Positions 1,274 through 63,872 of a stretch of 64,000 nucleotides of DNA are shown here, in pieces (position 1 is the stretch's first letter; the number at the start of each line of letters is the position of its first letter). Location of the stretch: NCBI GenBank assembly GCA_002633005.1, contig NMRA01000079.1, positions 448,102 to 512,101 of the forward strand, read 5' to 3'. The notes under the pieces were generated by a model. The model did not search any database and was not told where the DNA came from. It was given only the letters and a program-made list of their open reading frames with translations. Origin of the DNA: Phoronis australis (taxonomy: Eukaryota; Animalia; Phoronida). The translations under genes and the position numbers were made by a program.

Positions 1274-1424
1274 ATCAGCAGAATGTCTGTCAAACGTGCA
1301 GCTCCACCTGCAGGGCATGTGCTGAGTCGGCCAATCACTGTATATCTTGTTCCGAAGGTAAAATTTTACTGAACGAGTTCTGTGTAGAGACCTGCCCAGC
1401 TGCGACATTTGCTTCGTCTGAGGG
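1274..1424 (+). CDS. PCSK5-like exon (FU repeat)
   Basis: cag|ATCAG...GAGGG|gtgagt; DQQNVCQTCSSTCRACAESANHCISC. Confidence 0.85.
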
Positions 1425-17000: not shown

Positions 17001-18002
17001 AGAATTCACTAAGCAAGAATTCACGAAATATTGCCATGTATCTTCAATGAAAGCATGTGATTGGCTAGATTATTCTCACCGCGAGACAAGTATTGAACTC
17101 TAACCTGATACTTACTAGTGGGAATGCGTCTGAGATTAGTAAGACCTCATGCTGTCTTCCCAGGTGCATAGGTATAGACCTTAAGAGATTTTGCGACAAG
17201 GTGGATATTTTGTAAAACCTTTCATCTAAATTTGGAAATACACAAGTGGTTAGTCAAAATCTTAAGATTTTTTGTGTACACTTAGATTGTCTACCAATGT
17301 ACCAACAACTAAATAATATCATTGTGAAAATATTTTGTAGGTATAAATGAAATGACCATCAGCATACTGTATAGGCAGTCACGCGAGTCTTTTTGCGGCA
17401 TTTGTTCCAAAATATCCAGAATTTCTTTGACGAAATTTTTATTCCTGTGAATAAAGTTATAAATTATGCCTTTTCCGCAGCTGCCATTTTGGAAAAAAGA
17501 CTCGCATGAATGAGCCTGATGAAACATGTTAGAAAGACCGTAAAATTGAAATGTTACAAAATGCTCAATGGCCTAATTTATTCAAAACACAAACTCAAGA
17601 CTTCTCAAATGAGAGACTAGTCAGAGCAAATGGACGGAACAGAAACAAAAAACCTAAAATATTACAATTATCAAACAAAGTATTTAAACAACAGGTAAAA
17701 GAACAACTTAAAGTCTTAACAATAAATGACAAAATTTTAAAAAAACGTCTAAAATGAAAGTATGCATTTGGAATTCCCTAAGACATTAATGAATCAAAGC
17801 ACACTTTCCTAAACACATAAGGATGATGTAAAAAGCCTTTACATCAAGCTTGGCGTTAAATCCGTACAAGTGCCACAAACCAATCAAAATGGCTGCATCT
17901 CAACAGAATATATTTGAACGTCTTTGGTGAAAACAAAACGAATGACTTCATCACATCGCAGACACTTGATGTTGATGACATACATATCCCAGAATGCCTC
18001 TC

Positions 18003-18349
18003 TCAGCTAAGCACCACCTGTTGGCTTTCACGCAACTCAAGTTGCTGCAATCTCAGATTATTCACAGTCCCGCGTATCCGCTGCGATTTTGTTGTCCTTA
18101 ATCCCGTGACCGGGTCGAGGGGTGTCGTTGTCGATGACAACGGCCCCAACGTCCTATTGTTACTATTGAACCCTGTGTCATCCATTAAGCTGACCTCCGG
18201 CCGTGCTACGACAGGGGCCGGGGCGGACACAACGGACAACCCTGGAGGGTTAACTATGTTAGATCTTCTGTGGGTAAGAGGATTGTGGGAAGACGGAGCG
18301 TCCAGCACATTTATCTGCGACCTGACCTGAGGCACTGTACTTCTTGAGA
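18003..18349 (-). CDS. TTLL6/13 terminal coding exon
   Basis: ttcag acceptor, phase 1; VSRSTVPQ...[25 protein letters not shown]. Confidence 0.75.
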
Positions 18350-39300: not shown

Positions 39301-42300
39301 GAGCAATTTATAGCACCTATGACTCAGCTTATCAAATACTTTAGGTCAACAGTTCATAATTCACTAAAAATTAATTGGTGCTAAAATCAAGAATGATAAA
39401 CTCATTTTGATGTAAAATTGTGGTAACCATGGTACTGGTGATAAAAAGCATTCTTTATGATCTGCATAGTGGGTAAATCCTGCACAGTGAGAGAGGGCGT
39501 TGTGGTATTTCAGGACATGACCATCCAGGAGCCTGGTCAGGGGAGATCATCTCATCCATGAATCTACTAACCTAGAACTGCTAAACAACATGTCGCGGAA
39601 ATCAACGAGATTTCGTACGACCATTCGAGAATAGTTTGGCAAAGAGAAAATTCATTAGAAAAAGAAGTTATTAAAAGTAGAAATAGTCACTTGACATTGT
39701 TTTTTATTCCAATTTACAAGATAATGTTACGCTTTTTTCGTCTGAAAACACTTAATCCGACTGAGAGAAATGGAGATCACATGGCCTAATCTAAATAAGA
39801 CAATACTCAAGTCTTGATTTAAAAATGTGTACCCTTAGGACAAAAATATAGTTCAGCATACAATACCAACTAATTGATAAGAAATATACCATCATGACTT
39901 TAAAGCCTTTCCGACCAATATTAATGCTTTGGTGAGTGTTTGTGAAATGTTTATTTATTTTCAATACTGGGTCGAAGTTGAGGGCACAAGCCAACTCCGC
40001 AAGAAATAGGTGGATTTAACAGCGAAGTGACAGTAGTTCCAGGGATGTGCCATTGGAATTATCAGAAGGTGCCACCGTCAATAACAGTACGTGTTTTGAT
40101 ATTTTATATTCGATATTGTTTTCACTGTTCACTTCATTTCATTTATTATGGGACCACATAATATACTAAGCTTCAAAATTTTATGCCCGCCTAACGTTTT
40201 CGGAGCGCCACCTTGCGATAACTTCAATGAGCCACGCATCAAAATGCGATAACTTCAGTGTGTGAGTGAAAGGTTGACTTGACTGTGTAGTTTACACAAA
40301 CGCCTCACCAGTACCACAGTCACGGTAGTGCTTCACATATTTACCATACAACATGGCCGACAACTGAAATTCTATTCTGTTAAATTACTCCACAAAAGTA
40401 CAACTTAAGAACTAAATTTTAGAATATTACAAGCATAGATTGTCATCTGCATCCCCCTTCATTTGCAAACAGGTAACCAGCTCTTGAAAATGGAAAAAGC
40501 GTCACTTTTGTCAATTATCTCTGAACGAAATAAGTGGAGAGTTACTCTACTACTCGGTAAAGTACTAATTGAAATGTCTCCTTGGAGTTCTAAGTTCATC
40601 TTTTAGTACGAGATATGAGCTTGGTAAATAAAGAACGTAATTAATAAAATGCTCTTATCGAAATCACCTTGGAAGGTGAATTAAAATCGATTTAATAAGT
40701 CTGTGAGCAGATTAGGCACCTGATTACAGATGATTTAGAATGAGATCCCTGAAGCATTTTTGATAGAGAACAAGGTGTAACATTGCCTTAGGGCAATTTA
40801 CCAGAGAAAAAAATAAATGTAATTCTGCTCGTCGATTGCGGGGGAACAGTGCGAACAATGGATCACTAGCAACGTAATGTTCAGCCATCACACTATACTT
40901 CCTGTAAGTTCCTTCTGAACTATTTTCGTCAAATGTACGTTGTACCTCAAAAAACGAAATTAGATGCGATTAAAAATTTCAGCTCAAACTGATCAAAGCA
41001 GTTTCTGTTTGCTGCAAAATGTTCAACTTTAATTCTGGAGATGGTAAGCGGCAAGCCACGCAGTGTTAATGAGGTCTAACATATCGCAAACTTCAGACTA
41101 TAGAAATTCTCCGCCTAATTAACACAAAAATAATTGCCAGAATTGTTGTTTTTCCGTTTTTCAATGGCTGCTAACCTTTTCACAAACAATGAGATCTTCA
41201 GAAAATGTTGTTTCATGACATCTAATACACTATAAGGGCCTTTCATACTAACGTCGACGCGTCGATGGTTTGGGGAGTTGCGGTCAGTATGAACGCTTAA
41301 CTCCGGTCCTGGATCGCAGTTAACAGCTCCAGTTAACAGGTGGATTTAATAGCGCAGCGTTGACGCTGCGGTGCAGTATGAACGCTTAACTTTGGTCAAA
41401 TCGAAGTTATCGCCAGGTGCCACTGTTATCGTCAACAGTTACAAGGTAGTGCCATCATAAATAGCTGCTTTTTTTGCTCTAATAATAACCAATCGATTTA
41501 AAAATAAGTTTAATGACACTTGGCACATGTAAATGATTCCAACTTTGAAACATTGAAAAAATCTTAGCGTGCAACGCTACCTTGCGATAACTTCGATGAT
41601 GACAGCGGCACCAACCGCTTACTTCGATGTTCATTAACTACCGAAGCCAGTATGAACGGTCCAGTCAACTGCGCTGTTTATGTCGAGCTCAGACCTGAGT
41701 TAAGTCAATATGAAAGGTCCTATAGACTAAAATGCTCAATCTCTGCTTTTGTGGAGAATTTTAAGAAGATAGAATTTCACTTGTCAGCCGCACTGTGTAC
41801 TACATATGTGAAGACGTGTCGTAGCGTAAATCAGGTTAGTGCAATCAACAATTGATGGACCCCACTCGGTCTCGGCCCAAAATGTTACCATGTCTAATGA
41901 CAGACACTAAATTTGCCATGAGTTAAAACCAAATCAAAGCTTTTCACCCCAAAACATGAATAGAAATAGTTTTCAAAGGTGGCTTAGAATAGGGCTTCAA
42001 AAAAATAAAATCAAAGACTGCAAGTTTACATTTTTAAAATCTTGTACATTGTGTTACCGTCAGAAAAATGTCCTTCCCAGGTGGTGCTTTTTGTCCAAGT
42101 TCAAGGAAAGAGATTGATTATCTTAGTAATAATCTCGAAAATGAGATTCTTTTAAGTTAAGAAAACAGAGTGAGTAGCATTCTACGGTATGCGACTCGTC
42201 CGAGTGCGATCAAGTGTGAATTAAATTTCCCTTTAATTAGCAAGCTAATTGTTTCACACAAATCAAATTTCCTGTTTATAAAAAATGTCTTTATAACAGA

Positions 42301-45300
42301 AGGGATTCTTAAAGGCTAATGCTTACCAAACAAACAAATGAGGATTTTAAAAGAAATTTTTTATAACTTAAAAAGACCAAGTTCTTCCGTTGCAGAAACC
42401 AAGATATAGATTTTTCTAAATTGCTAATGAAATGAGCACCATTAACAAGGCATAACAAATTACGCGCAGAGGTGTTGAATGTATATTTACACAAGCAACC
42501 TAGTGACAATTTTAGACATACTGAAACTAAATATTGTCGGTAATTTCATAAACCAAATCATTGAAAAACAATAGGCAACGTGACTTGCAGTAGAAGTATG
42601 AAACTTTCAAAAATATGACGGCAATTTTACAAACAATCAATTTTATTTTATTGAACATAAGGAGACTGTGGCATGCAATCAAGTCTGTGGTTTCTGAATG
42701 AAAGTTATCTCCTTGCATGTTCATTTTTCCACAATCAGTTTTTATCAACGTGCTACGCAATGACAATTTGGTCACCCATTTCTGAGATAGAGTAAGCAGC
42801 AAGCAGTCGCCTTTTTCTGATTTCATCGTGTTCAAAAACAAGAATCAATTCATCCATACCTATGATCTCGGCTGATCATTCTTAACTGCGTTCAGACCGA
42901 GAAAACGATATCATTTAACAGCAAGTCACGAAACTTAAAGCAAATTGATAAAGTAGTAAATTTTTGAAGAAATCTTTAAAAAATCTCCTGCCATATTGGA
43001 TAGGAACCTGACGTCACACCTAACCTATGACTTACTCTATAACAGGGGACATAATAAGACATGTACAGACACCACATGATTTAACACAATTTTTTCAACA
43101 ATGTGGAACCAAATCAGCTAAAAAATAGTTGCCAGCATTGATAATTTTCATTAAAGATTTTTATAGTCTTACTCCTGATTGAATGTGCTTTATGTTTCAT
43201 CACCCAGTGTTAAGTGATACCTTTGCTTTGTGTTGCTCACTATTGACAACATATCTACGTTTTCTTATTGATATATAAACAGTACTCTTACTGATCACAC
43301 CAAAAAGTTTGGTATCAGAATAAATATACACAAGTTAGACTCATGGATTCTTGAACTGGGTTATTTCATTAAGTTCGCCATACTTTCACTTAAGTAGACA
43401 AACTCAAGACATGTTGTCATATGTACACACAAACCAGTGGTGCCTAATTCACTGATGTATCAGGAACATAACAATGTTATCAAAATAGACACAACTCCAA
43501 CCACAAACGGATATACCTGATGTGAGGTAATGCAAGCAAGAAATCAAAAATTAAACCTGTTTAATGGAATAGCGTTTAAGCTGGTTTACATCATCTGGTT
43601 ATTCCAATGTTTAGTGACGACCAATCTGTCACTAATATGACACAATTTGGACTCACAAACAGGAACAGAATTGCACAATTGCATCACATTTTCAAAAATT
43701 TTGCATGTCTTGGATTTTTCCAATTCTGGTAACCACAGGGGGCACTTTACCATTTGAAGTTTATACAAAATAATGGTGTGCTCGGACAACAAACAGTTAC
43801 ACCCACTGTATGATCCTAGGGAGTAGAGACTCTGAATAAGATTGACCAGGTACACAGCTAGGTAATAATTTTCAAAGTGCTTAGAATGTTTGCTACAGAA
43901 ATTTGGCTTAATTATTACTATTGTTTTAATTTTCACACTTTAATCTTATTTGACTGGGTCCAAAACATCGTAGTGACTTCACAATAAACAAGTGAATAGA
44001 AGTTGACATTTTGCAAGATATCAGAGCTGCACTTTTAATTTAGTCTAGATATTGTTTCATGAGTCTCTTGATCCCGCACTCCACCAAGATCTATTTGTTT
44101 ACGTCAATGGTCACCCAGCCCAAAATCAATACTTTGTGCCGACCAATAATCTATATCGGATAATAGAGCTGATTACAGTAGCAGGTAGCCCCAACAAATC
44201 CTCATGACTGAGACTGACACACATAGAACTGAAGAGTCCACCACAGTACAAGCCCAGTGCTTTATGGTATAGTCCTGGCTTTGTAAGAGATTTTCCCTGA
44301 ATGCTGAATCTGCAACCATCAATGTTTTCATGGAAAAAAAAAACAAAATAAAGATTCACATATCGCCCTGGCCACCCAGACAAGTCGTTGAATTAAGGGA
44401 CACGATATCATTGCCTAGCTGTCTATTTAAAAAGCATTCTCTTCTTGACAACACTTCAAATTGATTTGAAATTCCAGGCTGTATGAAAAGACGAATGTAC
44501 AAAGAAATTTGCCACAAGGTGTCATAAAAGTCTTTCAGTTTGGCGCGCAATATAACCCACGACTGGATTTGAACTTTGACAAATTTCTTGACAACAAAAT
44601 ACGATACAGGAGTCCTGATATTTTTCATTCTCGAATGTTGGCAACCATGTGTACGGGAACCTTATGTACAAAATACAGACACTGGTACCTTTAGCAACAC
44701 AGCACAAAGAGGGCACCCCTTCTGACGGCCATTAATGCGATTAGAAATACTACAGTTCTTCAAACATTAAGAAAGAATGAAGCAGTTCAGACCCATTCCA
44801 AGGAAGCTATACACTCCCTGTAAATTGGTTCTTATAAAAACATACGGGTCATTAAACTTCAATTGTGATAATTTATTTAATATCAAAGGGAATGAATGGT
44901 ATCGTTTAATTCCTTTGCAAAAGGCGATGGAGTTTTCAAGGTGATCAAAGATCTCCAACTGTTCTAGGTCTAGTACGACTTTTTTAAAACAGCCAGTTAA
45001 GGGTGAATGAAGAAACGTGACTGTTACTACCGGCACAGACATTCCAACTAATATGTGGGCCAATATAAATAAATGAAAAGGAACACACACAAAGACATCA
45101 GAAATAAAACAGGTGAAAATTGGGGAGAAAACTACAGTCTGATAATGGACGAAATGAAACCTGTCATATTAAAATCCTTTTTGCTTCTGCAAACAACTTG
45201 TCCTGATGTACGTGACAAAAGCCAATAAGCCGTACATAGTTACAGTGACCCGTCTCCTCAAGAATTTACAAACTAGATTTCACTATCAGTGTTTGCTTTT

Positions 45301-46956
45301 AAAGCTTGCCAGCAGGGCCTGTTATTCTTTACTAATACCTTTGGTTTGACTTCAAAATTCAGGAAGAAATGTTTTGTCTACAAAAACATTGCTCATTTTG
45401 TAGACATGTTTATGAACGAAAAAGTCTTGCCAATTTTGGGAAAACATAAATTTTACATTCCCCTTTTTTCATGGCTTCAAACACTGTTGTGAATGGTTGC
45501 AATTTTTCAAAACTATGTCTGGTGGTAGCTATGGTATAGAGTTAGAACATGGAAAAGCATTAATCTGTTGCTTCGTGTTTTTTATGGAAAACTGAGAAAA
45601 TGAAATTCCCTTTGTCCGACACCTTGTATACTAAATTGGTGAGATTTTACCTAATGTTATGTTACTCAATAAACCAGAGTTACAGCGTTTTTCAGACAGT
45701 AGGAAGAATAAGGGTCTAGACTGTAGTCTCTTAACTCAGACTCGGCTCAGATTCAAGACTCGAAATTTTATCAACGACGGTTTGTTATTCGGGGCAATAT
45801 ATGCAAGCTTACACAGGAAACACATCCCTTCAATTGGTCAACTTTTGAGTCCAGTTACGAGTGCAGTCATTTGATGCCAGACCTTGATTTATCAGAGGAG
45901 TGAATCTCAAACACCGCAGGCTATGATCGCAAGCTGTGTAATTTGATCTGATCCTGTGTGGCCACCCGATCGAATTCAACACGGTCCAAACATAGGAGCC
46001 AAAAAACATAATGAGGCACAACACAACACAATAGTTTCAAAAATTGGTTTCCTATTGATTTCAAAAATACACTTTTGTTTATTCCATTTTTTCTACAGGA
46101 AAATACTCTATAATCATGAGACTGATACTAAAATGAGACAACCGTATCCCATCAATTATAAAAATTAAATCAAAGCTGCATCCGGATTCAACTTTGAAAA
46201 CCACTGATTCGGTTCAGGACTTTTTTGAAAGAACTCTTTGTTACGGTTCTTTAATATGGCAAGTTTACAGTTGCTCATGATCATGTCTTGAATAAAAAAC
46301 CAAAGTTAGCTCTCGTCTTGATCCCAGATCATTTTAAAACCTGCACTCACCGACTAAAAAACAGGGATTCGCATCAATTTCAGTCAAGGTCTCAGGATGA
46401 TTTTTTGAAAAGCTGTACAAAGGCACGTAAGCAAGGTTTTAAATGTCATGATTTATCAAGCGATGAGTAGAAAAAAATTGTCATCATTTTTTCAGCCTCA
46501 GGTGGGTTTTCTTTTTTTGAAAATGTGAGCACTTAAAAATGCCACACTGCCGACTCAATTTAAAAAACACACAGACCAGAACCAACAATGATTTGTTTTT
46601 GGCCTGGCACCATGAATAACTTTAAACTGCAATCACTCCATTGGCTGTTTCAATGGGACGAGATGCCGCCCTTTCCATATCATTTATTTTTTTTCTTTAT
46701 TGCAGCTTGACCTAATTAGTACTGGTAGAGACATTTACGTAAAAAGACTGTTTACCAAAAAGACAAGAAACAGAAACTTACCCTCTCCTTCTCCCTCCCC
46801 TAATTCAGGAGGGGGTGGGGCTAACAAAGGGCAATCATCATCAACCAGAGTGAGAGTTCCACCTCCTGCTGAGTTGTCACCAGCATACTCATCCTCTGAT
46901 TCGCTGTCACTACTGCTACTGCTTGGATTGTCCTCCACATTGCTATCAATCACCAT
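18003..46956 (-). CDS. TTLL6: Tubulin polyglutamylase, TTLL6/TTLL13 family (~890 aa, 17 coding exons)
   Basis: complement(join(18003-18349,20997-21201,22842-23036,23525-23579,23955-24088,26117-26276,27252-27440,28596-28777,29537-29762,30503-30591,31076-31219,31791-31947,32616-32746,33504-33622,33989-34029,38510-38633,46782-46956)) = 2673 nt, open frame. TTL motifs [72 protein letters not shown]. Confidence 0.92.
19394..19498. repeat. 27-bp minisatellite, ~4 copies
   Basis: Unit ATGAGTCCACAAGATCTGATTCATGAA. Confidence 0.92.
20997..21201 (-). CDS. TTLL6/13 exon (C-terminal region)
   Basis: ttcag|TTCCAG...TTAG|gtaagg; open frame, phase 0 to 1. Confidence 0.72.
21674..21823. repeat. 38-bp minisatellite, 4 copies
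   Basis: Unit ACAATGTTGTCTGTTGATAGCTATAGTACAGAACTTG(A/C). Confidence 0.93.
22506..22586. mobile_element. Tiny TA-flanked MITE (Tc1/mariner-like ends)
   Basis: TA|CAGGGGTCCCAGATTTTGAGAAC ... GTTCTTAAAGTGTGGGACCCCCTG|TA inverted repeats. Confidence 0.6.
22842..23036 (-). CDS. TTLL6/13 exon
   Basis: cgcag|CACGAG...CCT|gtgagt; 195 nt, phase 0-0. Confidence 0.75.
23280..23442. repeat. Diverged ~83-bp tandem duplication
   Basis: CTGCCTAC..ATAGATAGATG...TCACAACATTCAAGGG.GGTAGCA occurs twice. Confidence 0.75.
23525..23579 (-). CDS. TTLL6/13 exon
   Basis: tgcag|ACTA...TAT|gtaagt; [19 protein letters not shown]. Confidence 0.8.
23955..24088 (-). CDS. TTLL6/13 exon (conserved EEEELER block)
   Basis: [45 protein letters not shown]; GT-AG. 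Confidence 0.88.
26117..26276 (-). CDS. TTLL6/13 exon (basic region)
   Basis: [29 protein letters not shown]...; GT-AG, phase 2 to 0. Confidence 0.85.
26540..26838. repeat. 23-bp minisatellite, 13 copies
   Basis: Unit GAGTCCCTTAGTTG(T/A)GGGACACT. Confidence 0.97.
27252..27440 (-). CDS. TTLL6/13 exon
   Basis: REELEQ...[10 protein letters not shown]...[17 protein letters not shown]. Confidence 0.9.
28596..28777 (-). CDS. TTLL6/13 exon (VNHSPSF, basic microtubule-binding segment)
   Basis: [26 protein letters not shown]... Confidence 0.93.
29537..29762 (-). CDS. TTLL6/13 exon (catalytic core)
   Basis: [18 protein letters not shown]...[21 protein letters not shown]. Confidence 0.95.
30503..30591 (-). 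CDS. TTLL6/13 exon
   Basis: [30 protein letters not shown] (not in the ORF track). Confidence 0.93.
31076..31219 (-). CDS. TTLL6/13 exon
   Basis: [37 protein letters not shown]. Confidence 0.95.
31791..31947 (-). CDS. TTLL6/13 exon
   Basis: [30 protein letters not shown]...CQQYIAK. Confidence 0.95.
32616..32746 (-). CDS. TTLL6/13 exon
   Basis: [43 protein letters not shown]. Confidence 0.95.
33504..33622 (-). CDS. TTLL6/13 exon
   Basis: [40 protein letters not shown]. Confidence 0.93.
33989..34029 (-). CDS. TTLL6/13 41-nt exon (start of TTL domain)
   Basis: tccag|AGTC...TCAG|gtgaga; [14 protein letters not shown]. Confidence 0.85.
38510..38633 (-). CDS. TTLL6/13 exon (acidic then poly-Lys tract)
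   Basis: tgcag|GTTTT...AAAAA|gtaagt; [11 protein letters not shown]...[10 protein letters not shown]. Confidence 0.8.
41235..41721. mobile_element. PIF/Harbinger-like MITE (487 bp)
   Basis: TIR AGGGCCTTTCATACT / AATATGAAAGGTCCT (13/15 match), ATA on both sides (3-bp TSD); internal repeated CAGTATGAACG. Confidence 0.7.
46782..46956 (-). CDS. TTLL6/13 first coding exon (acidic, Ser/Gly-rich N-terminus)
   Basis: Exon 46782-46982 with ctag acceptor, ACCATGG Kozak context and gtaagt donor; phase 1 matches the next exon. Confidence 0.7.
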
Positions 46957-48941
46957 GGTTGGGGGTGCTTGCAAGCAGAAACCTAGAACATTTAAGAAAA
47001 GAAACATTTGAACTTGTGAACTTCCAGAACTCTAATAATGACTAGATCATAATACATTAAACTATCTTAAGTTGGTACCATACTATTACTTAAAACAAAC
47101 ATTTCACATTCTTCTAATTTAGAAAAAATAAATCACAAGTAAGTCTATTTTCCCCTCATAAAGTTTGAGACAAGGTGGCTTGATTTTTTCTAGAAAACAG
47201 CATCTCAACACTGATAAAATGTCCCCAGGGAGCGATAATAACAAAGACAGAATATTCAACTCAACTTTTTTTAATGATCAAGAAATTAATATTTGACTAA
47301 AAATCGGAGACCACAAAAATGGACAACAATCTAATTTTTAGAGATAGCTCCCAGCTGTAGTTAACTACATGTCACGTTACGAGATTTCAGCATCACAAAG
47401 TCATTCTGTGAGTATCAGCATGAACAAAGTGACAATTAGTACAGATGTCCAAAAATTTCCAATCATTCAACCATTGAGTTCAACATCCATGAGGGGGCAA
47501 TGTTCCCTTTGTTAAAAGCAAACATGCAGTGGGGTGGCCACAGTATATCACATATAAATTCCATGTGTCAATCAAACATAAAATATGCGTCTAATTAAAG
47601 ACCTGGACAGAATTCCAAAAATGAGTAAGAGGACTGGATGGGCAAATTCTGAGGAAACAACCTAAAATCCAGCATAAAGCAAACTTGGAGTTACCCCATG
47701 GATGAAAAAACCCATGCAATAAAATGACCCAAAGCGAAGAACCCTTGTGGCGCAAAACTTTTTGCAAATCTTTCCACTATCATTCACAGGCATTCAACTG
47801 ATAAAAAATCACAAGCATCAAGGTCGCTGTGGTACCCCATTCACACCTCAACTTCCGATAAAACTATTACTGTCGCACTATCACTTTTGCTATTGCTATA
47901 AGGGTCACTGTTCCAGGTGCTTTGAGTTATGCTTATGTTGATGGCCAATTTTCGCTTTTATAGCAATTTGGGCAGTGAGGAAATATTTGATGGCCAGAAT
48001 TACACCAATGAAGGCAGCACATCTGTCTGGCAAAACTCTACCGTTTTTGCAACTGACTAGGAATTTCGCCACTCACACAAATCCAGTATGGCATGTACTT
48101 TTAGGACATGCACATGACAACGGTGTATTGTTGGAAGCCATTCTGATTGTCCCTGATTTTGATAGTAAATAAGTCCACCACGCCAGCACAATCTTCAATG
48201 TTATGAGCTAAGATCTGGTGAAAATTTGAAAGACTATCAAACTAAGACTACCAGCCAATAAACTTTGGCCTTTTTGATGTTTTACTGTTTATAATTATCA
48301 CTTAAATTCAAAATTACTTGGACATACAGCCAATCAGGCCAGATCCCAACTGAGCTGACCTAAATAATTCACACCTAAAAAGGAGATAGTGTTGTCTGTG
48401 TATTTTGCACCATTCAAGTCACAGTTTGCCGTTTCCTCAAACACGGAACAGATTTACAATGCATAAGGTATTTACTGGTAAACCAGTTAAGCATTCCCAA
48501 TAATGACAGTGTGATTGCATGTCTGCCTTTACCAACCACACGCAAAGTGTTGCCAATGATTTCGATAACCAGGCAAAGGCACTGGTCGCATATAGCAGCT
48601 AGACCCTGATTTTCAGAAGTTCCAGTTTCATCCACAGAATAACGGGCCTGTTATTCAGTGATTGCCTGATTCTTAGAATCAGTGACCACTATATCCGACC
48701 AGTACCCAGGCAATCACATAAGTTGCCAAATTCAAGGGCCACAATCGCAGGTCCAGGCTGAAGTGACAGGCGGTCAAGTATTCGTTGTTGTAAAGAAACG
48801 CAGCGCCAGCCGATCACCGTTCAACATGTCCAACGACATTTGCAAATTGAATTGTGAACGGGCCATTTCCACGACTTCTGAACAATCCTGTACGTCTTAA
48901 AACGAACGGAAAATTACGCAGAATGTCTAATCATCTTTTAC

Positions 48942-51981: not shown

Positions 51982-52719
51982 AAGTTCACGGCTGCACGAA
52001 TTGTCCAGTTCACCGTGGGTCACCGTTTTTGTCAGTTGCTCCAGCGAATTATAGTTTTAATTTAGTCAGCAAAAACAGCAGTATCTGAAACTCACCGTGA
52101 TTTACTGCTGACGTTAATGCGTTTCCTAAACTAGACATCTGCCTTGTTCTTCCTGTGTTTACCGGTCTTATCAGGTAATAAAATCTCCATGTTTCGGTAA
52201 TAAAAACAATTTAATATTTTACAAAAAAACAGTCACAAAAGTATGGTAAAAGTACATTCCACACACTAAATTGATATCAAATTTGCAACGAAAAAAATAA
52301 ACATGCTTTCTATTATAAATAGCGATTATACAGAACTGCTAACAACCTTCAAAGCAATCAAGTATTATTATTAATAACAAAAAGATCGTGGTAAAATTAA
52401 GATTGCCATTGACATTGAGAAAAAGTAACAGGAATTTATCGATTTATAGGCACATCAACAGATTAACAGCATCAGTAACAGTGTTTAACAAGTAAAGATG
52501 TAAACAAGAAGCGCTATGAAAAGTAACAAAAATGACCAACCAAGTAACAACAGAGAATGAACCAACGGGATTTAGGAATACAGGTTTGGGCAAAAATGTT
52601 TTTCTGGACGTTTTAACAAAAATATGTTTAACTACTCAGGGCATTATGATTATCACAGCGTTTATCAATAAATATGGTGCTCCATGTCAAGTTATTTTGG
52701 ACACGACGCGCCCATGACG

Positions 52720-53060
52720 TCATAGGCGGGTGCTTGTACTGTTGAAAGGTACTTCTACACTAGTCGTAGCTTGGGCGCCAAGTTGTTCATTCTGTCGGCT
52801 AACAGTGAATATTGGTGAGGGTTGATCGACCGTGTCGTAGAGACGTCGCGGTGCGGTGGTAGAATCACGTATCGAACGTTCTAGATCTCTGCATCTTTTA
52901 GTTTGCTTCCTTTGAATGTGCGACAGAATGATGGCTATAGCTATGAAGAATAGACCGAAAAGCGCCATGACAACAGTTAGAATTCCTACCCACGTGGTAA
53001 ACGATATAGGGGCCTTTGTGCGAACACCGTATTTTTCGTCAGCCTTATTCAGCAAGGCTC
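52720..53060 (-). CDS. Collagen-EGF gene terminal exon: TM helix and tail
   Basis: ttcag acceptor, phase 1; [26 protein letters not shown] then QRKQTKR; ends NSTSTRL*. Confidence 0.82.
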
Positions 53061-56000
53061 CTGAAGAAAAAAAAAAACATAAAAGTAATGCGGTACTGAA
53101 AATTCAGGGTATGTCTTAAGTTCACATTTTTACACAGAGTCTACACAAGAAATTTACGCCAAACTTATGGTCACCACAATTTTTTTCTAGGGTATGTAAA
53201 GTACCTCAAGTTATGATATTATAGTAAAACAGGACCCAGGTCTTGCAAAAGACCACCACTCTGCAATTGTTCTGGTAATATCAAATTTGGACAACTAAAT
53301 TATAGTATTTCATGTATTTTTCCATCTTCACTTAATAGTTGTGTACACACCTGTTTTAACGTTACTTAGGTCTACGCATATGCGGCTACCATAAGTATTG
53401 TAGCACGTGGCTCCCTGGCAACCACCGTTGTTCGTCGCGCACTCGTCAACGTCTGCAAGACACAAGCATGATTGTTTACCACATTTCTCCGTTGTCATTG
53501 TAACTCAATGTATATTGAAAACCACCAGGGTGTGTTAAAGTAGAGTTCAGCCTCCCGTTCAGTAACGCTAAGACCTCGCTAAAAAGCAAGACTTTGCGAG
53601 ATTACGTTAGATATTGCCTTGCATTTTAAATAAGAACACGTGACTTTGACTAGGTTTTAGCTAGGTCCTAGCGTAGGTCCTAGCGTCTACTGAACGCACA
53701 CCAGGTTTCTACTATCTATGGGTCATTTGTCTTTTAGTGATGTACTACGTTTAAAATCATGACTATTTTTTTGTTTACGAAGAATTTGTACCGCATAACA
53801 TTTTCATAAAACGAAGCCTAAACACATGCCACACGGAAATCCATTATCTTTTCCGAGAGAAACAGAGAATTTTTTTATTAATTCATCCCTGTCCTCGCCA
53901 CACTGCCGAAGTAACTAAACGACTCCAGATATACCTCGGTGGCTTAGAGTGCCGTGCCAGCACTTAACATTATGGACTGACACCATCAGGCCGGGGATAT
54001 TTTCCATGAAAACTGAATTAATACGCGCCACACAATTATCCCCCCCAAGAAAAGTATCTCCCCTTCGCTGAAGAAGTCTCATGAACTGCTGTTTGGTTAG
54101 TAAATTTCTTTAACTTATTTCGAAACTTGACTTGTTCACAATTACATGTCAAAATCTTTATTCAGTAACAGTGAAGTGTTATCGTGTCAATTTTTTCGCC
54201 TGCTTAAAAGTATGCTGGACTCTGTTTTGATGGTTTCAGACAATCCTCATTCTATCACCTCCTAATGCAACATTGGCGCCAATCTTGAAGATAAAAGCAG
54301 GAATCGACTAAAACATGCTGGCGATGTAACAGATTGGGCATTATGGTTCTTGATGGGTTGTCTTTCTCCGCAGTTGCCTTGTTATTCGTCGTCCCTTCAG
54401 CATACTTTTAAGTTTGTCGAGGGTTATAAAGCTTTATTTTGTTTCGTAAATTTGAATGAGATGTCGTTTTTACGCAAAAAAAGAATTGGTATCCTTTTGA
54501 GTCTACAGTTAATTTTCACGAAACTGACCTCTGTAGAACTAAGTTATGTCGAGCCGGAACCACAGTTCCGTTTGAGCGTACTTTTTTTATTATACTTAAA
54601 CCATGCTTGCCTATAATGCAAATGAATGTTTTTTTACCGTCACAGTGATAGCGGTCAGCGGCGAGCGTGAAGCCGGAATAGCATCGACACAAGTAGGACC
54701 CAGCGGTGTTGACACATTCTTGATCACATAATCCACTCACAAGATGGCCGCCGACGGAAGCGGACAGTTGGCATTCGTTAACGTCTGTAAGTTGCGTCAA
54801 TGAAAATCTCAAAAACATGGAATTGAACATTCTCATTTACATTTATAGATTTAAGATATCATTCGTGACTGTTTCGAGTGATACGATTGATGTTCCCAGT
54901 AACACGCTTTCTATGTCTTTATACCTGATGTATACTGATGATGTGACTTTCTTGAAAAGTACGTGAGTGAATTAATTTGAACTGGGTTCGACTTTAGTGG
55001 GTCCCAGGTATGCTGTTGTTATCAGCAATGGTGACATCAACAATGTTTTAGGGATCTAATTTAAAAAAAAGATAATATGGAAGCTAACCTATCGTTTATC
55101 ATACCTAGACACAGAAACTTGTTGTTTGGATCCACGCGGTAACCAGGGTTACAGCGACACTCGTAGGCACCGTAGAAGTCGACGCACGTGTGCTGGCATC
55201 CGCCATTTTGGTTCGCACATTGTCTGATCACTGAAAAGACCAACAGTACTAAATGCCAGTAGCGTAAGAAACTTCTATCATAACAATGTCGTTGTTTAAT
55301 TCAGTTTGGATTTTTTCTTTAATTCTACTCTGATGCCACGACATGCTAAGCCATAGAAACAAGCCAAATTGATTGACTCAGATCATGAAAGGTGTGAATA
55401 AATTTAACATTTAAGTATCTACTCCATTTCCTATTCCTAAGATCTCTACTTAATTTGTACCTGATGATGATGGAAAGTCTTACCTGATGCTCCCGACGAC
55501 CCGGGTGGTCCGGGGGGTCCAGGTGGCCCGGGAACGCCGACGCCACTTACTCCCTTTGGACCAGTGGAGCCTTGAGAGCCAGATGGTCCTATGGTATAGC
55601 CATAAACAAGGTGAGTATTGATCTTAACACGCTCACTATAGGTCGTAGCCTATACTAGGCATCAAATCTTCAGACGTGTCCATACAATATTTTCATTGGT
55701 GTGAAGCTGCATGTAATATATACACAGTGAAGAACAGTGGTGGACATTGCGCCATATTTACAAACGTTGCAACGCTGCCAGTTGCCCAGTGCAATCCTCT
55801 CGCCGTCGTACTTGAAACCCACTCTAGGCAAAAGAAGATTTGTCACGTCGTTGGTTCTTATGTTATAGTGCGCTGCATCGAAAGGCTGATTTAATGTGAT
55901 CGTCACCGCAAGAGAATGGTTGAAATGCGGTTGTGACCTTTGGAGATTTTTCAGTTTTAAATAATTAGCATTCAATGCCAATTGACTGGCCACGAAAGAT

Positions 56001-59000
56001 CCGATGCTTCCCAGAACCAATGATGTCAGATCATGGATTTGCAATTGACCCAACTGATATTAGTAAAGACAAAGTCAAAAGAATATCCCACACTTTTAGC
56101 AACTGGACCCATTGTTATATATTCTCACTCTGCTAGGGCTTGGCTCTAAATGATGTTAGGTTTATCAAATTGTGCATGCCAACCAACAATATCAAGTGCC
56201 ACCGCAATCACCATTCATCCGCACCACAAGACACCGTTACCATTGAATTTACGAAAAACCCTCTGTGGAAAACAATAAGCTAATAAACATGCATTCGTTC
56301 ATTAATTTCATAACAAAATGGTTGGCGAACAGACATTACCTGGGGGGCCCTGAGGTCCCTGTACTGAATAACCTCGTGGACCGGAAGGTCCTTGCACACC
56401 CGGGATTCCAGCTTCACCTTTCGCTCCCTTCGCTCCAGGAAGTCCTGTGGTAAATATTACATATAGAAAGACGTCATCAGCCATGCATCATTTAAAGATT
56501 CTTTACTCAATTGTGTCGCGTATAAGCGTACGCTTTTAGGTAGCCGCTACTATCCCGTGCGCATTTCAAGGTGGAAATTATTCGAATTTGTTATTACCCA
56601 CTCTTGTACTTTTCATTCTGACACAGTTGGTTGAGAAAAGTCAAGTGACAACTGGTGAGAAGAATTTTCTAGACCAGCCAAAAGAAGAGTGGGAAGTCAG
56701 TCGCGGCATCACGCTTTGCTAGCGGAGTTGACTAAACCCTCTCGATAAGTAGCCAAGTAGTTTACCATTATTCAACTGACGTGAAATCATGGGCCTGGAT
56801 TTCAGGGAATGACTGGCAGCCAACTGCGAGAATAGGCAAGTTATAATAAAATCAAAGAACCACGAATCGTGTAGCTCTGTTTAAAGGTAATAACCCCAAG
56901 ACGTCTATTCCATTAAAAATTGCCATTTTCAAAAAATGTGATTTTTGCCCCTAAACACGACTATGTTCCCTTAGCTGGCTGTTTGCTCGGTTTTAATCAT
57001 AGACTTGAATACACACCATCAATTACAATATTGCATTGTGTAAGGCAGTTACACTGGCATATATCTTCGCTATTTGCTCCTTGCTTGAACTCAAAATTGT
57101 CTTAAGTTGACACGTGCGCTTCACTTAAATATGATAAACGCACACACAGGATAGTCTTTAATACGTTTCTTCATCCATAAGTGATCTTCAAAATAATTAT
57201 TTTCTGTAACTGTAAGTTATCATTAATCGTTTAGTTGATTTCCATTTTCCATTTGGAGTTTATTTTGATGCAATTCATTTCTATTCATGAACAAAAAATA
57301 AACCATCAACCAGAACGGTGATTTTTTTATAAATTTATAACGAGGCCTAAATGACATGAAAGGTTCATTAACACCTGAGCCGACGCCAGCTCACCTGGAG
57401 CACCGACCACAGACTTTCCGGGGGCACCTTGCGCGCCCGGTGGACCTGGCTGCCCGGGTGGGCCCACGATACTTTCACCGGGGCGACCCTGTATACCATT
57501 CGCTCCTGGCAGTCCAGGGAAACCTCTGGCGCCAGACTCGCCCTTAGAGCCCGCTGGTCCGGGCAAACCTAACAGAGAACACAAAGTCATGTTGTATTTC
57601 GTGAAACTGATGCTGGTGTTCCGCATTCAGATATCCTTGATAAACGATAAATTATTAGATGTACACTGTACATGCGCGCACCCAGGGGGGGAGGGGGGAG
57701 GGGAGCCCCCATTTGGTGAAGTAGGCAAAAAGGTCCGCCTCAGAGAAACAAAAAGTCCGAGGAAACGAGACAAAGGTCCACTAAAAGGCGTAGACTTACA
57801 CTTCACTGTACTGAAGGTGGTCCCCCGTCCTTTAGCTTTTTTGTTAGCGCAAAAGGTCCACTGGTCAGAAATTAAAGGCTGGGTGCGCGCATGCTGTATA
57901 AAAGTATTTTGTCACTAGTCAAGTTCATGCACGTTATAAATGGTTTTTGAATTTTTCACCAGTGTCTACATTCAGTCATTGTTACCAGATATCAAGAGGT
58001 TAAGTACCGGATTATAATTAAGCTACATCTCAGATACGCAGGCAGGTTTGGAGGTGATTCGTAGCCGCAGGTGACCCTGTTAGGTAAACTCGATGAAAAG
58101 AACTTACGTAGTGAAGGAGGAAGCAAAATTCTGGCCACCGGGGACTACCTCAAAAAGCGACCGCGGCCGGGATAAGGTTGTGACCACCAGGAATGCCCCA
58201 CACACTTGTTACAACTTAGGAACATGAAAAAACTTAGTCCAGCACTAGCTTTGGGTGTTTGAGAGCCCCCATGGAAAGCAGTGACAATTGATGGGGCTAC
58301 CCTCATTGTAAATATTACAAAAATAAATAAGTAAACTCGCCTTGTAAGCCCTTCTGTCCGTCAGCGCCGGCAGGTCCCGATACACCAGGAGGACCGCTGG
58401 CTCCCGGGTCACCCTTCGGTCCAGTCTGCCCTTTCACACTTACAACGCTGACGTCTCCTTTTGGACCGGGAGCTCCCGGAGATCCCACTTCTCCTTTTCT
58501 TCCGTCGACACCCGGGGCGCCCGGGACTCCTCGATCACCCTTGATGCCCGCATCCCCCTTCTGCCCTTCGACACCCCGCGGGCCTTGTAGTCCTACATGA
58601 TAAGATGTTATGTTTCGTATGAGCTTTTGCAACAGTTTCCAGTACAAAACAGCAGATCTAACAGCGTGTGCAAGCTAGTTGGAACGACATCCTCGACGCT
58701 CCTCATTTGTGCGAAAAATTGCTCAACATCGAAAATTGTAGAAGAAAGCCTACTTTAATTTCTGCCTACACTGAACACTTAGCATCATGTATGAAGCGTA
58801 AGCATGAAACACATGCTACAGTGCTTACTCACAAAGATTTGTTTTTGATTTGGAGGGTCATCATGTCGCGCTGGCACGTGCTCCAGAAACTATCCTTATA
58901 TAAGAAAGGTCAGTTTAGCACAGACGCGCGAAAAGGAAAATGACGCGGTAATAGTCCAGATATAAGATCGCCTTCAAAACCTTAACATACTTTTAGTTTA

Positions 59001-62000
59001 GATCACTTGCCGTTGTCGAATTAATTGTTCATTAGACAAGCTGAAGACCATATCGGGGCTTCAGTCGAAAAGCACTGACATTTCGTATTGTTAGATGCCA
59101 GGCAGTACAAGTTAGTTGGTCACGGCGTGTCAATTACTGTCTCCATGAATAGCAAATTGTCAGTTCTACACAAACCAGATCACTTCCCATTTGAATATTA
59201 TTAAAACTCGAGAGCAATGTCGTTGCGGTATTTGACCTAAGTCAAAAGCTCGCCTTCTCAACGGAACGCGGGTCTATATTTGTAGAAAAGAAAAGCTGCA
59301 ATGAAGATACCTTGAGGTCCCGAGATCCCCGCAACGCCCTTGGCACCTTTAGCCCCGCTAACACCTCGTGCACCCACGGCACCAGGCTCTCCCTTCTCAC
59401 CCAGCGAGCCACTCGTTCCACGTTCACCCTTGACGCCTGTTGACCCGGGTTCACCTAAACGAAAAAGCAATGCCGTATTGTGGAAATCACTGGAATGCTT
59501 ATGTGTCAGATTTCCCCCCACATGTGTAAAATGACACAGTAATAATGCGCCCACATACAAATATGTGGGCTCACAAAAAGCGACCCATCGTATCTACACT
59601 CCTGTTTGCTTACCAATCCGTTTGATCTATGAGGCAAAGATTTTACTCTCACCTTTAAATCCTCTAGCTCCCGACAAGCCAGGGATACCTGGCGACCCCA
59701 TCAGACCTGGTAAACCTTGGTCTCCGTTTGTGCCAGAGACACCACGTGCCCCTGAAACGCCAGCAACACCTGGAAGATGATTATAAATTAACAGTTAATT
59801 AAAGCTCGCATGTTATACATTCTCATCAATGGCAATGTCATTTAATTTTTATGGCACCTACGGAATAAAAAAAATATCTTGGAAGGTCATTTCTGTTAAA
59901 AGATACCTGAAAATACAAGACTGATAAGAAAATTTGTAATTACTTGTATTTCTCAGAAGATTAAATAAATTATTATGATGAAATGAATTTGCATGACGGT
60001 AAACGAAAGTGGTTTTTGAAATCTCCTTTACTACAAAGCCAATACCACACTCCACCAAATCTTCAAACATTGTCTTCACCTGGAAATCCCTGTTCACCCT
60101 TCGCCCCCGATGTACCCGGCACGCCGTCGTTACCCTTTTCACCTTTTGCACCTGGTATGCCATCCAGGCCCCGGACACCATTGTTACCGGGAGGTCCCGG
60201 CAAGCCTCTTGAACCAGAAACGCCGGGACTTCCGGGAAAACCCGTGCTTCCAGCAGATCCTATGGAAAAACAGAAGAGCGCACGTGTTATCAGCGAATTC
60301 GTCCAACTTTCACGAGCACAGTTTTCATAAAGAAACAAAATACGTTGTCCTGGTGTACTGGACGTTTATCGATATACTGGTTTAAATTGGATATAACGTT
60401 CAAGTTCTTACAACTGGAGTTCTTTGTCTTCTGTTGGTGCCAATGTGCTGACGCCAACGTGGCGTTTTACAGCGAGAATACGTCTGAAGTTTGAAAGACC
60501 ACGTGCTATTTTTCCATATACAAGGCTATGTAAACTTATATCCTTTTATGAAGGTATGTGACAAAATGTTGCCACTTTTCGGCTGCTACCTTTGAAAACC
60601 CCCACGTGGTCTAAAACGTACTGGAAACTTACTATTCGAATAAAAGTAACATAGGGGCTGTGATCAACTATTTACCTGGCGAACCAGTTGGTCCCCGATC
60701 TCCTTTCGCCCCGTCTGATCCCGGTAAGCCGCGCTGTCCATTGGCACCGGACAACCCTGGCGCTCCCGTATCACCAGTCAGACCTCTAGATCCGGCTGTG
60801 CCCTTGGAACCGGCATTTCCTTTTTCACCTTTTTGTCCATGATCACCGCGAACACCCACACCTAGTGCACGGGTCATTTCGACGTAGTTAATATTAATGT
60901 TTACAATAGGAATCTTGCTGCCGTTTAGACTGACCTTTTCATGGACTCCGAAGGAATGGCTTTTTGAAAATCATCCAAGGAAACCGGTTCACTTTTGTAT
61001 TTCGAACTTCTATAAAGGCTCGTTTTCTAATAACGCAAATCGTCAGGGTATGAAATTTTTGTTGAGTAATGCAGTACTCATTCTTGAGGACATGCCATAT
61101 CTTCTTGTTTTACTTCAGGCTAGGTCTATTAGATTAAAAATTCACCTGTCAATGTTTATGAAATTAAGTCCTAAAATGTGTAGATTCTGGAATAAAACCG
61201 TCCGAAAGTCAGACTTTCATGTAAACCTTCTTTGAGCCCACTCTTTAAACAGGGGCGGATCCAGGATTTTGAGTTGGGGGGGGACAAGACAGAGCATTAG
61301 CCAGGATTTTGCCCGACAGAAATTCGCACCCTAGAACCGCCAAATGTAATCTGGGAGAATTTTAGGGGGCCCATGGTCCCCTTGGCCCCCCTCTAAATCT
61401 GCCACTGTTAAATGAATGAGTATCCTTATTTTGTCCGCTACATTCCTTGTCAGACTAGGTTAAGTGCCCCAACCCTCTCCCCTTCTAGTCACACAAAACA
61501 GTTCACTAAGGAGAATTACGTATTTAAACTGCAGTGTGCATTACCTTTAAGGCCGCGCTCTCCCTTAGCACCACTGACGCCGGGCACTCCGGGTGACCCA
61601 GTGTCGCCCTTGCTGCCTTTCGCCCCTTCACCTCCGTCGTTCCCGTCGACCCCAGGAGAACCTTTCGGTCCTACAATTCCCTGTTCACCTTTAGTACCTT
61701 AAAAAAACAGTCGGAACATCAGGTGCTTGAAAATTCGTCACCAGGCTGGTTCATCACCAACGCACATAAGCCCAAAAGTTATCAATCGTTCTACTTAAAG
61801 TTGGAACGAACGAGCTATATAAAGACAATTTCTGTAAAAATTGCTCAAGCGACGCGGACAATTTCGTTTTGTCAGACGCCTCAACAAAAATCTTTTGTGA
61901 AAATTTTAACCTACACCAGGCAAAACTTCGAACGTTTCCAGTTGTACAGTAATACAACTAGGTATTTTCCCCAAATTGGAGAATTATTACCGGCCGTACA

Positions 62001-63872
62001 TAAGCTGGTTTTGTTGTGAGCTCTGTCGCCTCGAGCAGGAACAAAACGTCTTTCACATTAAAGGTAGTCTCCACTGAGCAAGTTCATGCAAGACCTACAA
62101 ACTCTTTTAAGAATCGGAAATCTTAAACCAAACCTTTTTGTCCTTCAACTCCTGGAAATCCCTGTGCGCCATTTTTTCCTTTGTTGCCCTGAGGCCCAAT
62201 ATTCCCGGCTTCTCCCTTAGAACCAGATTCTCCTTTCTCGCCTTTATCCCCTTTGTCACCACGAAATCCAGTCACTCCCGGAGGCCCGGGAAGCCCGCGA
62301 TCCCCCTGGGCGCCACTCTGGCCGACTTTTCCCACCACGCCTTTCTGTCCTTTCGTCCCTGGCAACCCGGTCGCTCCCAATATCCCCGCTAGTCCCTGGG
62401 GACCTCTGTCGCCCTTGTCTCCGCGTGACCCCGACGGACCGACATCTCCTTTGGTGCCCGGAAATCCCTAACAAGTGACAAGACTATCAGCATGTATTGC
62501 CTACACTGAAATGATATGTCAGTAAATTAATTTCATGTTATATTCAATGTTGAAAAGATGGCCGTTAGATTCTCAGTTGTGAACTATTTCAATGTTGAAC
62601 AATTGATAGGCATCACCTTCTTGTATTTCAAAACGTATCCCCACGCTTGACCTAAAACAGAGTGGATTGCATATTGCTTAGACGTATCGTCTAGTACAGA
62701 CATAAACTCACTCTCAGCCCTTGGTCACCCTTATCTCCCCGACTACCCTTGGCGCCGGTCAGACCGTCTGCTCCGCGCGCTCCAGTGGCCCCTGTTTTAC
62801 CAACACCAGGCGCTCCTGGGTTGCCAACTGGTCCAGGTAGTCCGAGAAATCCACGCTCGCCGTTTGCTCCTGGTAATCCAGTTGCACCAGTTTGACCCTC
62901 TGGTCCACTGATGCCGCTCTCTCCAGGTTCACCTTTATCGCCTTTAGATCCACTTGCACCTGTGAAATGAAAGGTAGACACGGTTCTGTCAGTCAAATTC
63001 CTGCATATCTAGGGCCAGTTCATGTTACTGTATACGACAAATAACGGACTTTGATGAAACAAAGATAACATTAGGACACCGTCAGAAACTCATGTCCAAA
63101 ACTTTTGTTGGGGTATTCGTGAAGCAATGTAAGTTGTCATGCACGACACTTACCGCTTTCACCTTTGACACCCGGGAATCCGCGCAGTCCTTGCACACCT
63201 TTCGCCCCACTGGACCCTTTTACGCCCTGTAGTCCTGGCTCACCCTTCCGACCGTTGTTTCCCACCGTGCCTGGAGAGCCTTGGGGACCGGAAATGCCTG
63301 TAAACGCCACCAACGTATTATTAGACAATATAGGCCTTTATAAAAATACAGTATACCCGTATACAAAGCGTGGCCAGGTATCTTATTTTGCTAGCGTAAA
63401 AATCCTTCGGACACAATTTTAGAAATCACTGATTTCACAGGCTGTAAGAATCCCGTCTCACTACAAGAAATTCTAAATGCTCGTTAAAAGAACATGCTCG
63501 CACACTCGTTTTAGTTAGGGTGAACGACAAAATTTTCTTCATCGTCTTCCTTTCACGCTACCTCGTCACTAACCTTGCAAACCCTTCTCTCCTTTATCGC
63601 CTTTTTGTCCCCGAGAACCGCTCTCCCCCTTCACAGAGACACCTGGTGTTCCCTGGATACCAGCGTCACCTGGAAATAAATCATTATCTCACAAGTGGAA
63701 GAAGAAGAAGAAAAAGAAGACGAAAGCTCACCGAATGCCCGATTTTTCGACGTTACAAACGTACCTTTAGTGCCTTTGAGACCCGGCAAGCCGAGTGATC
63801 CTTGATCGCCCTTTGATCCTTTGACTCCTGAGAAACCACGTAGTCCTTGCACACCAGAAGACCCCATTTCTC
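52720..63872 (-). CDS. Long interrupted collagen with C-terminal EGF domains, TM helix and cytoplasmic tail (5' end outside window)
   Basis: complement(join(52720-53060,53351-53452,54638-54784,55105-55230,55484-55588,56340-56444,57395-57568,58341-58592,59311-59454,59653-59769,60080-60259,60676-60861,61545-61697,62134-62467,62712-62959,63154-63297,63574-63669,63765-63872)); one continuous frame, ~1019 aa visible, 782 aa from collagen exons. Confidence 0.88.
53351..53452 (-). CDS. Truncated Ca-binding EGF exon (4 Cys)
   Basis: [34 protein letters not shown]; phase 1-1. Confidence 0.85.
53553..53697. mobile_element. Short inverted-repeat (MITE-like) remnant
   Basis: CGTTCAGTAACGCTAAGACCT pairs with AGGTCCTAGCGTCTACTGAACG. 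Confidence 0.5.
54638..54784 (-). CDS. Ca-binding EGF exon
   Basis: DVNECQLS...[30 protein letters not shown]; phase 1-1. Confidence 0.92.
55105..55230 (-). CDS. EGF exon
   Basis: [42 protein letters not shown]; phase 1-1. Confidence 0.92.
55484..55588 (-). CDS. Last collagen exon
   Basis: [35 protein letters not shown]. Confidence 0.9.
56340..56444 (-). CDS. Collagen exon
   Basis: [35 protein letters not shown]. Confidence 0.9.
57395..57568 (-). CDS. Collagen exon
   Basis: [18 protein letters not shown]...GESIVG...GKSVVGAP. Confidence 0.9.
57671..57893. mobile_element. MITE with perfect 15-bp TIR and 5-bp TSD
   Basis: CTGTA|CATGCGCGCACCCAG ... CTGGGTGCGCGCATG|CTGTA. Confidence 0.88.
58341..58592 (-). 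CDS. Collagen exon with GC donor
   Basis: 252 nt; [10 protein letters not shown]...GQKGLQ; ends AAG|gcgagt. Confidence 0.85.
59311..59454 (-). CDS. Collagen exon
   Basis: 144 nt Gly-X-Y, phase 1-1. Confidence 0.9.
59653..59769 (-). CDS. Collagen exon
   Basis: 117 nt Gly-X-Y, phase 1-1. Confidence 0.9.
60080..60259 (-). CDS. Collagen exon
   Basis: 180 nt Gly-X-Y, phase 1-1. Confidence 0.9.
60676..60861 (-). CDS. Collagen exon
   Basis: 186 nt; [12 protein letters not shown]... Confidence 0.88.
61250..61407. mobile_element. MITE with 5-bp TSD
   Basis: TTAAA|CAGGGGCGGATCCAG ... CTAAATCTGCCACTG|TTAAA. Confidence 0.8.
61545..61697 (-). CDS. Collagen exon
   Basis: 153 nt Gly-X-Y, phase 1-1. 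Confidence 0.9.
62134..62467 (-). CDS. Collagen exon
   Basis: 334 nt, phase 0 to 1; two RGD triplets. Confidence 0.9.
62712..62959 (-). CDS. Collagen exon
   Basis: 248 nt, phase 1 to 0; ends [12 protein letters not shown]|gtgagt. Confidence 0.9.
63154..63297 (-). CDS. Collagen exon
   Basis: 144 nt Gly-X-Y, phase 1-1. Confidence 0.9.
63574..63669 (-). CDS. Collagen exon
   Basis: 96 nt; [32 protein letters not shown]. Confidence 0.88.
63765..63872 (-). CDS. Collagen exon (5'-most visible)
   Basis: 108 nt; [36 protein letters not shown]. Confidence 0.88.

Follow-up and report, generated by a model that had tools for sequence, protein, structure and literature searches.

A spliced gene of Phoronis australis likely encoding a membrane collagen anchored by its C-terminal end

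Whether a natural animal collagen can be held in the cell membrane by its C-terminal end is the question raised by a gene in a 64,000-nt window of the Phoronis australis genome (the window being the whole stretch of DNA analysed). In a systematic survey of the human proteome, collagenous proteins were all secreted or type II except the nuclear protein WDR33 (PMC13138384). A type II topology is likewise ascribed to MACITs, ectodysplasin, colmedins, and class A scavenger receptors (PMC7848082, PMC4678570) and to the nematode cuticle collagens (PMC11304992). Many choanoflagellate collagens have transmembrane regions, and the choanoflagellate protein ChCL has an N-terminal anchor and a collagen part of ~50 aa; C-anchored examples may occur among these transmembrane collagens, whose positions are given in the supplement of the preprint (10.1101/2021.10.08.463732).

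Within the window, the gene occupies the minus strand from 63872 to 52720. With splice sites read from the sequence, its 18 exons join in a single open frame of 1020 codons without internal stop, in agreement with the initial annotation, and the stop codon lies at 52720-52722. Among the 17 introns, 16 were of the GT-AG type and one of the GC-AG type, and phase 1 was found in 16, the remaining one being in phase 0 (62712/62467). In a six-frame scan of the window, Gly-X-Y runs were confined to the minus strand, from 63873 to 55476. Because the exon starting at 63872 opens in the middle of collagen after an acceptor, the 5' end of the gene lies beyond the window. An alternative donor at 55461 was considered for the last collagen exon and rejected (phase 0, running into a stop); the RNA uses 55484. 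The features are as follows.

55484..63872, minus strand: 14 collagen exons, 782 aa, 254 triplets, 8 interruptions, open at the 5' end (RNA junctions, Pfam Collagen)
63872-63765, 63669-63574, 63297-63154, 62959-62712, 62467-62134, minus strand: collagen exons 1-5 in the window
61697-61545, 60861-60676, 60259-60080, 59769-59653, 59454-59311, minus strand: collagen exons 6-10 in the window
58592-58341, 57568-57395, 56444-56340, 55588-55484, minus strand: collagen exons 11-14 in the window
57569..58340, minus strand: GC-AG intron, 772 nt (sequence; 9+8 junction reads in X1+X2)
55484..57568, minus strand: proline-rich membrane-proximal rod end, last 96 residues (proline profile, GPP count)
55105..55230, minus strand: EGF module 1, six Cys, phase 1-1 exon (Pfam FXa_inhibition, E 6e-11; both junctions in RNA)
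54638..54784, minus strand: EGF module 2, calcium-binding type, phase 1-1 (Pfam EGF_CA; both junctions in RNA)
53351..53452, minus strand: half cbEGF (Cys1-Cys4 only) and start of the stalk, phase 1-1 (EGF_CA below cut-off; both junctions in RNA)
52720..53060, minus strand: last coding exon, with the remainder of the stalk, helix, QRKQTKR, tail, and stop (hydropathy, AlphaFold, depth 23-34)
52400..52719, minus strand: 3' UTR, end approximate (read depth)

The RNA comprised three raw runs (X1, X2, and X3) and one contig set (X4), matched by species label. The reads of X1 and X2 were 151 nt long and no single molecule spans the gene, so the continuity of the transcript rests on overlapping junctions. 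In both runs, the exons were covered on one strand in the orientation of minus-strand RNA, junction reads included. Among the matches listed, at least 16 of the 17 predicted junctions were found at the predicted intron lengths, including at least 12 of the 13 that join collagen exons; the 60080>59769 junction was absent among those listed, its flanking exons both being covered by reads and both its ends being in phase 1. The chain for which the initial annotation had sought junction reads was present throughout, namely collagen to EGF1 (55484>55230; 11+12 reads, with exon depths of 17 and 15), EGF1 to EGF2 (55105>54784; 15+6), EGF2 to EGF3 (54638>53452; 15+11), and EGF3 to the membrane exon (53351>53060; 22+11). 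Alternative inter-exon junctions were absent among the matches listed for X1 and X2. The membrane exon had a depth of 23-34, compared with 5-25 for the collagen exons, and is therefore not a minor isoform, while read depth was 21-22 in the bin 52401-52801 and ~1 or less below 52400. The gene is thus expressed and spliced, and its Gly-X-Y, EGF, and membrane exons form one transcript by overlapping junctions, rather than belonging to different genes, as the initial annotation had allowed. Since the junction chain runs from collagen through the EGF modules to the membrane exon, the collagen lies N-terminal to the membrane helix.

X3 showed essentially zero coverage of the gene exons (52400-63872), whereas X1 and X2, which belong to the same study, covered them. 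With the intronic repeats, which were equally covered, as the comparator, this difference suggests tissue- or stage-limited expression. These repeats (53548-53706, 57690-57880, and 61250-61390) matched hundreds of RNA reads that were 90-95% alike, on both strands and with loose ends, and are likely small dispersed elements common in the genome; the contig set X4 contained only repeats at the gene.

The RNA donors of X1 and X2 differed from the window sequence at many exon positions. Among the 38 coding differences listed, which are a subset, 27 were silent, whereas random changes would be silent in 26.5% of cases (p 1e-8, ignoring transition bias), and a triplet Gly was replaced in none of the 11 replacements listed, with 30% expected at random (p 0.02). 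All 14 differences listed beyond residue 640 were silent, compared with 13 of 24 before it (p 0.003, the boundary having been chosen afterwards). The EGF, helix, and tail exons held three of the 38, all silent, which is thin evidence of selection for that part. Overall, the reading frame is under purifying selection. Within 59311-59769, which includes two collagen exons, each read of X1 and X2 carried 4-5 departures from the window sequence, almost all of them fixed, and the donors seem to represent a diverged population or a close species.

The remainder of the window contains animal-type neighbouring genes. On the plus strand, ~1150-10886 holds the 3' portion of a gene that presumably encodes a membrane-bound PCSK5-type convertase. 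It carries numerous furin-like cysteine-rich repeat exons, for which Pfam Furin-like narrowly missed its cut-off (E 6e-6), and its final exon encodes a hydrophobic helix followed by a tail. On the minus strand, ~17000-33700 is a tubulin-tyrosine-ligase family gene with Pfam TTL on all three exons tested, which we take to be TTLL6/13-like, and ~38000-48700 shows several exon-like frames, one of them acidic and serine-rich, of which five were tested in Pfam and none scored above the cut-off. An assembly gap of 500 N occupies 106-605.

The initial annotation had described at least 782 aa of Gly-X-Y. A collagenous region of that length was recovered (residues 1-782), not as an unbroken repeat but as 254 Gly-X-Y triplets (762 aa) in nine runs, divided by seven G4G interruptions and one G8G interruption. 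The largest collagen exon matched Pfam collagen with an E value of 4e-21. The collagen part is devoid of cysteine and carries Lys in 53 Y positions, 33 KGE/KGD motifs, and four RGD motifs. Its proline content is low (10.6% overall), which counts against taking a stable helix for granted. The last 96 residues of the rod contained 23 Pro, compared with 60 in the 686 residues upstream (Fisher p 5e-5, with the boundary picked after the profile had been viewed), as well as six of the nine GPP triplets, and this proline-rich, membrane-proximal end is likely to be the folding nucleus. Collagen rises by 0.286 nm per residue, which for 254 triplets gives a visible rod of 218 nm if folded, a minimum for a gene that is open at its 5' end; the predicted length of more than 200 nm accordingly holds if the triple helix folds. 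Two pairs of collagen exons resemble each other at the DNA level, 63872-63765 and 63297-63154 with 84% similarity over 38 nt and 63669-63574 and 60861-60676 with 81% similarity over 32 nt, a hint that the rod may have grown via internal duplication.

The three exons that follow the collagen all matched EGF-type Pfam families, with EGF_CA above its cut-off for EGF2 only. EGF2 scored 28.2 bits (cut-off 27) and has a long Cys1-Cys2 loop, the half module EGF3 (Cys1-4) reached an E value of 3e-4, under the cut-off, and the best solved-structure match of EGF1 was LDL receptor EGF-AB, a generic resemblance. The order of EGF, cbEGF, and half-cbEGF in the initial annotation was reproduced by exon translations, Cys counts, and Pfam. 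A COLFI or C4 (NC1) trimerisation domain, the C-terminal mark of fibrillar collagens and collagen IV, was absent from the four post-collagen exons in Pfam, where only EGF families exceeded the cut-off. Between the half module and the helix lies a domain-free stalk of ~30 residues, and no furin-type RxxR site was found in residues 1-954, the modelled ectodomain.

The helix predicted earlier was evident in the hydropathy profile of the 1020-residue model, where the best 19-residue value was 2.99 at residues 934-952 and the best elsewhere was 0.79. This sole hydrophobic helix (~932-954) follows all of the triplets. AlphaFold, applied to the last exon alone as a single sequence, predicted a helix over its residues 20-67 (pLDDT 93-97 over 21-50), extending ~20 residues into a tail that is otherwise of low confidence; a three-copy fold of the helix region scored 0.02 (mark 0.32). 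Six K/R occur in the 15 residues after the helix and three before it, as expected of a type I stop-transfer helix with a basic flank, although the net charge is +4 after and +3 before, a weak asymmetry that counts against this assignment. The basic QRKQTKR and the tail also agreed with the initial annotation, the tail having 64 aa from Gln957 or 66 aa from His955. It is Ser/Thr-rich, ends in STRL, and contains one cysteine (Cys964, near the membrane), one tyrosine (within YDTV), and the model's single N-glycosylation sequon and single RxxR (969-972). We take Cys964 to fit the palmitoylation pattern, YDTV the Yxx-hydrophobic sorting/endocytosis pattern, and the terminal Thr-Arg-Leu the class I PDZ-ligand pattern; YDTV and STRL are short and may occur by chance. 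Of the adhesion, tethering, or sensing receptor proposed initially, the anchoring role stands better than the receptor role, because Pfam found no catalytic domain in the tail, which offers short motifs only.

EGF modules need the secretory pathway. Given that the disulfide-type EGF modules and the collagen lie on one side of the helix and that its C-terminal flank is basic, topology rules place the collagen outside and the tail inside, and we consider this C-anchored, collagen-outside arrangement highly probable. The inverted type-I topology of the initial annotation stands in that the collagen precedes the helix and the C-terminus is likely cytosolic. Strict type I topology is very probable as well, at a slightly lower confidence, and is a step that we infer, since the N-terminus and the 5' exons that would encode any signal peptide lie outside the window, beyond 64000.

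Class A scavenger receptors, ectodysplasin A, the colmedins (gliomedin and UNC-122), and ChCL share the presence of collagen in a single-pass membrane protein but are described as type II or N-terminally anchored, with C-terminal heads, and have far shorter collagen. The collagen of class A scavenger receptors, ectodysplasin A, and colmedins is generally known to be far shorter than that found here, and the C-terminal part here consists of EGF modules, helix, and tail, with no SRCR, lectin, TNF, or olfactomedin head. CCBE1 shares collagen and cbEGF, but it is secreted, has no membrane helix, and places EGF before short collagen segments, whereas the order here is collagen, EGF, helix. In streptococcal Scl1/Scl2 and herpesvirus saimiri STP, too, collagen-like repeats precede a C-terminal anchor, but these are bacterial cell-wall and viral cytoplasmic proteins, respectively, lack EGF, and are not animal cell-surface collagens.

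Membrane anchoring, a long interrupted helix, and a short cytosolic part are shared with the MACITs XIII/XXIII/XXV, nematode COL-99, and collagen XVII (PMC4678570, PMC7848082). MACITs and collagen XVII are described as type II, with the helix before the collagen and a cytosolic N-terminus, whereas here the helix comes after the collagen with an EGF stalk between them. MACITs fold from N to C, starting at a juxtamembrane coiled coil that registers the chains, and form rod-like bridges to the matrix, and the collagen XIII rod of ~150 nm is shorter than the visible rod here, if folded (PMC7848082). Collagens XIII, XXIII, and XXV are shed by furin, whereas the visible ectodomain here has no RxxR, beside the membrane or elsewhere. 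According to PMC13138384, which classes CCBE1 as 'Miscellaneous' and not as 'Transmembrane', every human membrane collagen is type II, and a gene product with the reversed arrangement therefore falls outside the MACITs. Overall, the protein likely works like a membrane collagen in reverse, yet as neither a MACIT nor a CCBE1, and its C-terminal anchor is likely the reverse of how membrane collagens are anchored in the literature searched.

A HMMER search of the last exon against 1.84 billion representative proteins gave no matches at E up to 0.001, the strongest blank among the searches for relatives. Word-based searches of proteins up to 2000 aa, which are weak, supported none of 181 candidates among longer proteins for the last exon, none of one for EGF1, and four of 13 for EGF2, all four being generic multi-EGF proteins with no collagen domain listed. 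In metagenome contigs, none of 358 stretches matched the last exon, and EGF2 matched seven loci, all generic EGF arrays without collagen exons. In the ESM Atlas, the last exon drew only small membrane proteins of similar appearance scoring below 0.9, and a collagen exon drew only fragments of plain collagen; the C-terminal part had no paralogue within the 64,000-nt window. Across the protein, metagenome, and ESM Atlas searches, no orthologue was found that would show conservation of the architecture or the tail motifs; the gene is therefore lineage-restricted, its tail is fast-evolving, or its source group is poorly sampled. No description of a collagen-EGF-C-terminal TM protein was found in the full-text literature searched, in which subscription journals are thinly covered, and automatically annotated look-alikes of this architecture may exist. 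The earlier view that the protein belongs to no named family was borne out in the protein, Pfam, and literature searches run. At the 162 places where 'collagen' occurs in the Nematostella matrisome table, nothing is named as a collagen-EGF-membrane protein, the names not giving full architectures, and the matrisome lists an undescribed collagen-Ig protein (PMC12549020).

We give about an even chance to the reading that the protein is a homotrimeric type I membrane collagen tethering the cell to the surrounding matrix. An N-terminal signal peptide, encoded beyond the window, would target the chain to the ER, where its transfer would be halted by the C-terminal helix, leaving the collagen and EGF modules outside and the tail in the cytosol. 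Three C-terminal membrane anchors would then register the chains, replacing the absent C-propeptide or NC1. The GPP-rich end beside the EGF modules would nucleate the triple helix, which would zip towards the N-terminus, in the direction of secreted collagens and against that of MACITs. Lifted off the membrane by the EGF stalk, the kinked rod, at least ~220 nm long, could bind to or weave into the matrix, while the terminal Thr-Arg-Leu might bind a PDZ scaffold, linking the rod to the cell cortex, and the YDTV motif might control endocytosis. Long collagens are described as needing a registration domain against misaligned helices (PMC13138384), and the procollagen C-propeptide could be replaced by a transmembrane domain with trimer formation kept (Bulleid 1997, via PMC7015688). 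The chimera of Bulleid, Dalley and Lees resembles the present protein in that a C-terminal anchor takes the place of the C-propeptide, with trimers forming, but differs in being artificial and in having neither an EGF stalk nor a natural tail.

An unlikely alternative, although one that survives better than the others, is a long-stalk capture or sensing receptor, a reversed scavenger receptor of type I whose N-terminal head (lectin, SRCR, vWA, or similar), encoded beyond the window, would bind microbes, particles, or a partner cell and whose tail would drive uptake. The endocytosis-type YDTV and the expression in X1 and X2 and not in X3 fit such a receptor, but the visible part shows no head domain, and at least 254 triplets far exceed the stalks of defence collagens. 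In scavenger receptors and ficolins, recognition domains do sit on collagen stalks (10.1101/2021.10.08.463732).

The helix might instead serve mainly as a folding device in place of the C-propeptide, the rod being cut in the stalk and secreted as a matrix collagen, which we regard as less probable again. The domain-free stretch between half module and helix would offer room for cleavage, shedding is known for other membrane collagens (PMC7848082, PMC4678570), and a membrane anchor suffices for trimers (PMC7015688); the sole RxxR, however, lies on the tail side, and a 66-residue tail with a PDZ-type end exceeds what a folding device needs. Quite improbable is a doubly anchored collagen, in which a type II N-terminal signal anchor beyond the window and the C-terminal helix would form a loop on one membrane. 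Type II is the rule for described membrane collagens (PMC4678570, PMC7848082, PMC13138384) and the 5' end lies where such an anchor could be encoded, but the proline-rich end sits C-terminally, and a semi-rigid rod of more than 200 nm would be hard to accommodate between a pair of anchors in the same ER membrane. Two neighbouring genes, joined by read-through or as a decayed chimera without a working membrane collagen, are very improbable and largely refuted: the lack of a relative of the helix-tail exon among the representative proteins would fit them, but the reads across the collagen-EGF1 junction are substantial relative to exon depth and the single open frame is dominated by silent changes.

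Returning to the membrane-tethered collagen, we hold it to be an evenly balanced proposition that this protein is the first type I membrane collagen of natural origin to be described from an animal, an independent cell-to-matrix collagen anchor that would have arisen via phase-1 exon shuffling, with an EGF stalk, a helix, and a PDZ-type tail in the place of the C-propeptide, the membrane registering the three chains and the cell gripping the C-terminal end of a rod more than 200 nm long. If true, it would be the natural counterpart of the procollagen-membrane chimera engineered in 1997, and a natural, expressed, and selected C-anchored collagen would break the secreted-or-type-II pattern. It would become possible to test in vivo whether three long chains are registered by membrane tethering alone, and the protein would be a candidate for a direct collagen link from cell cortex to matrix in an invertebrate.
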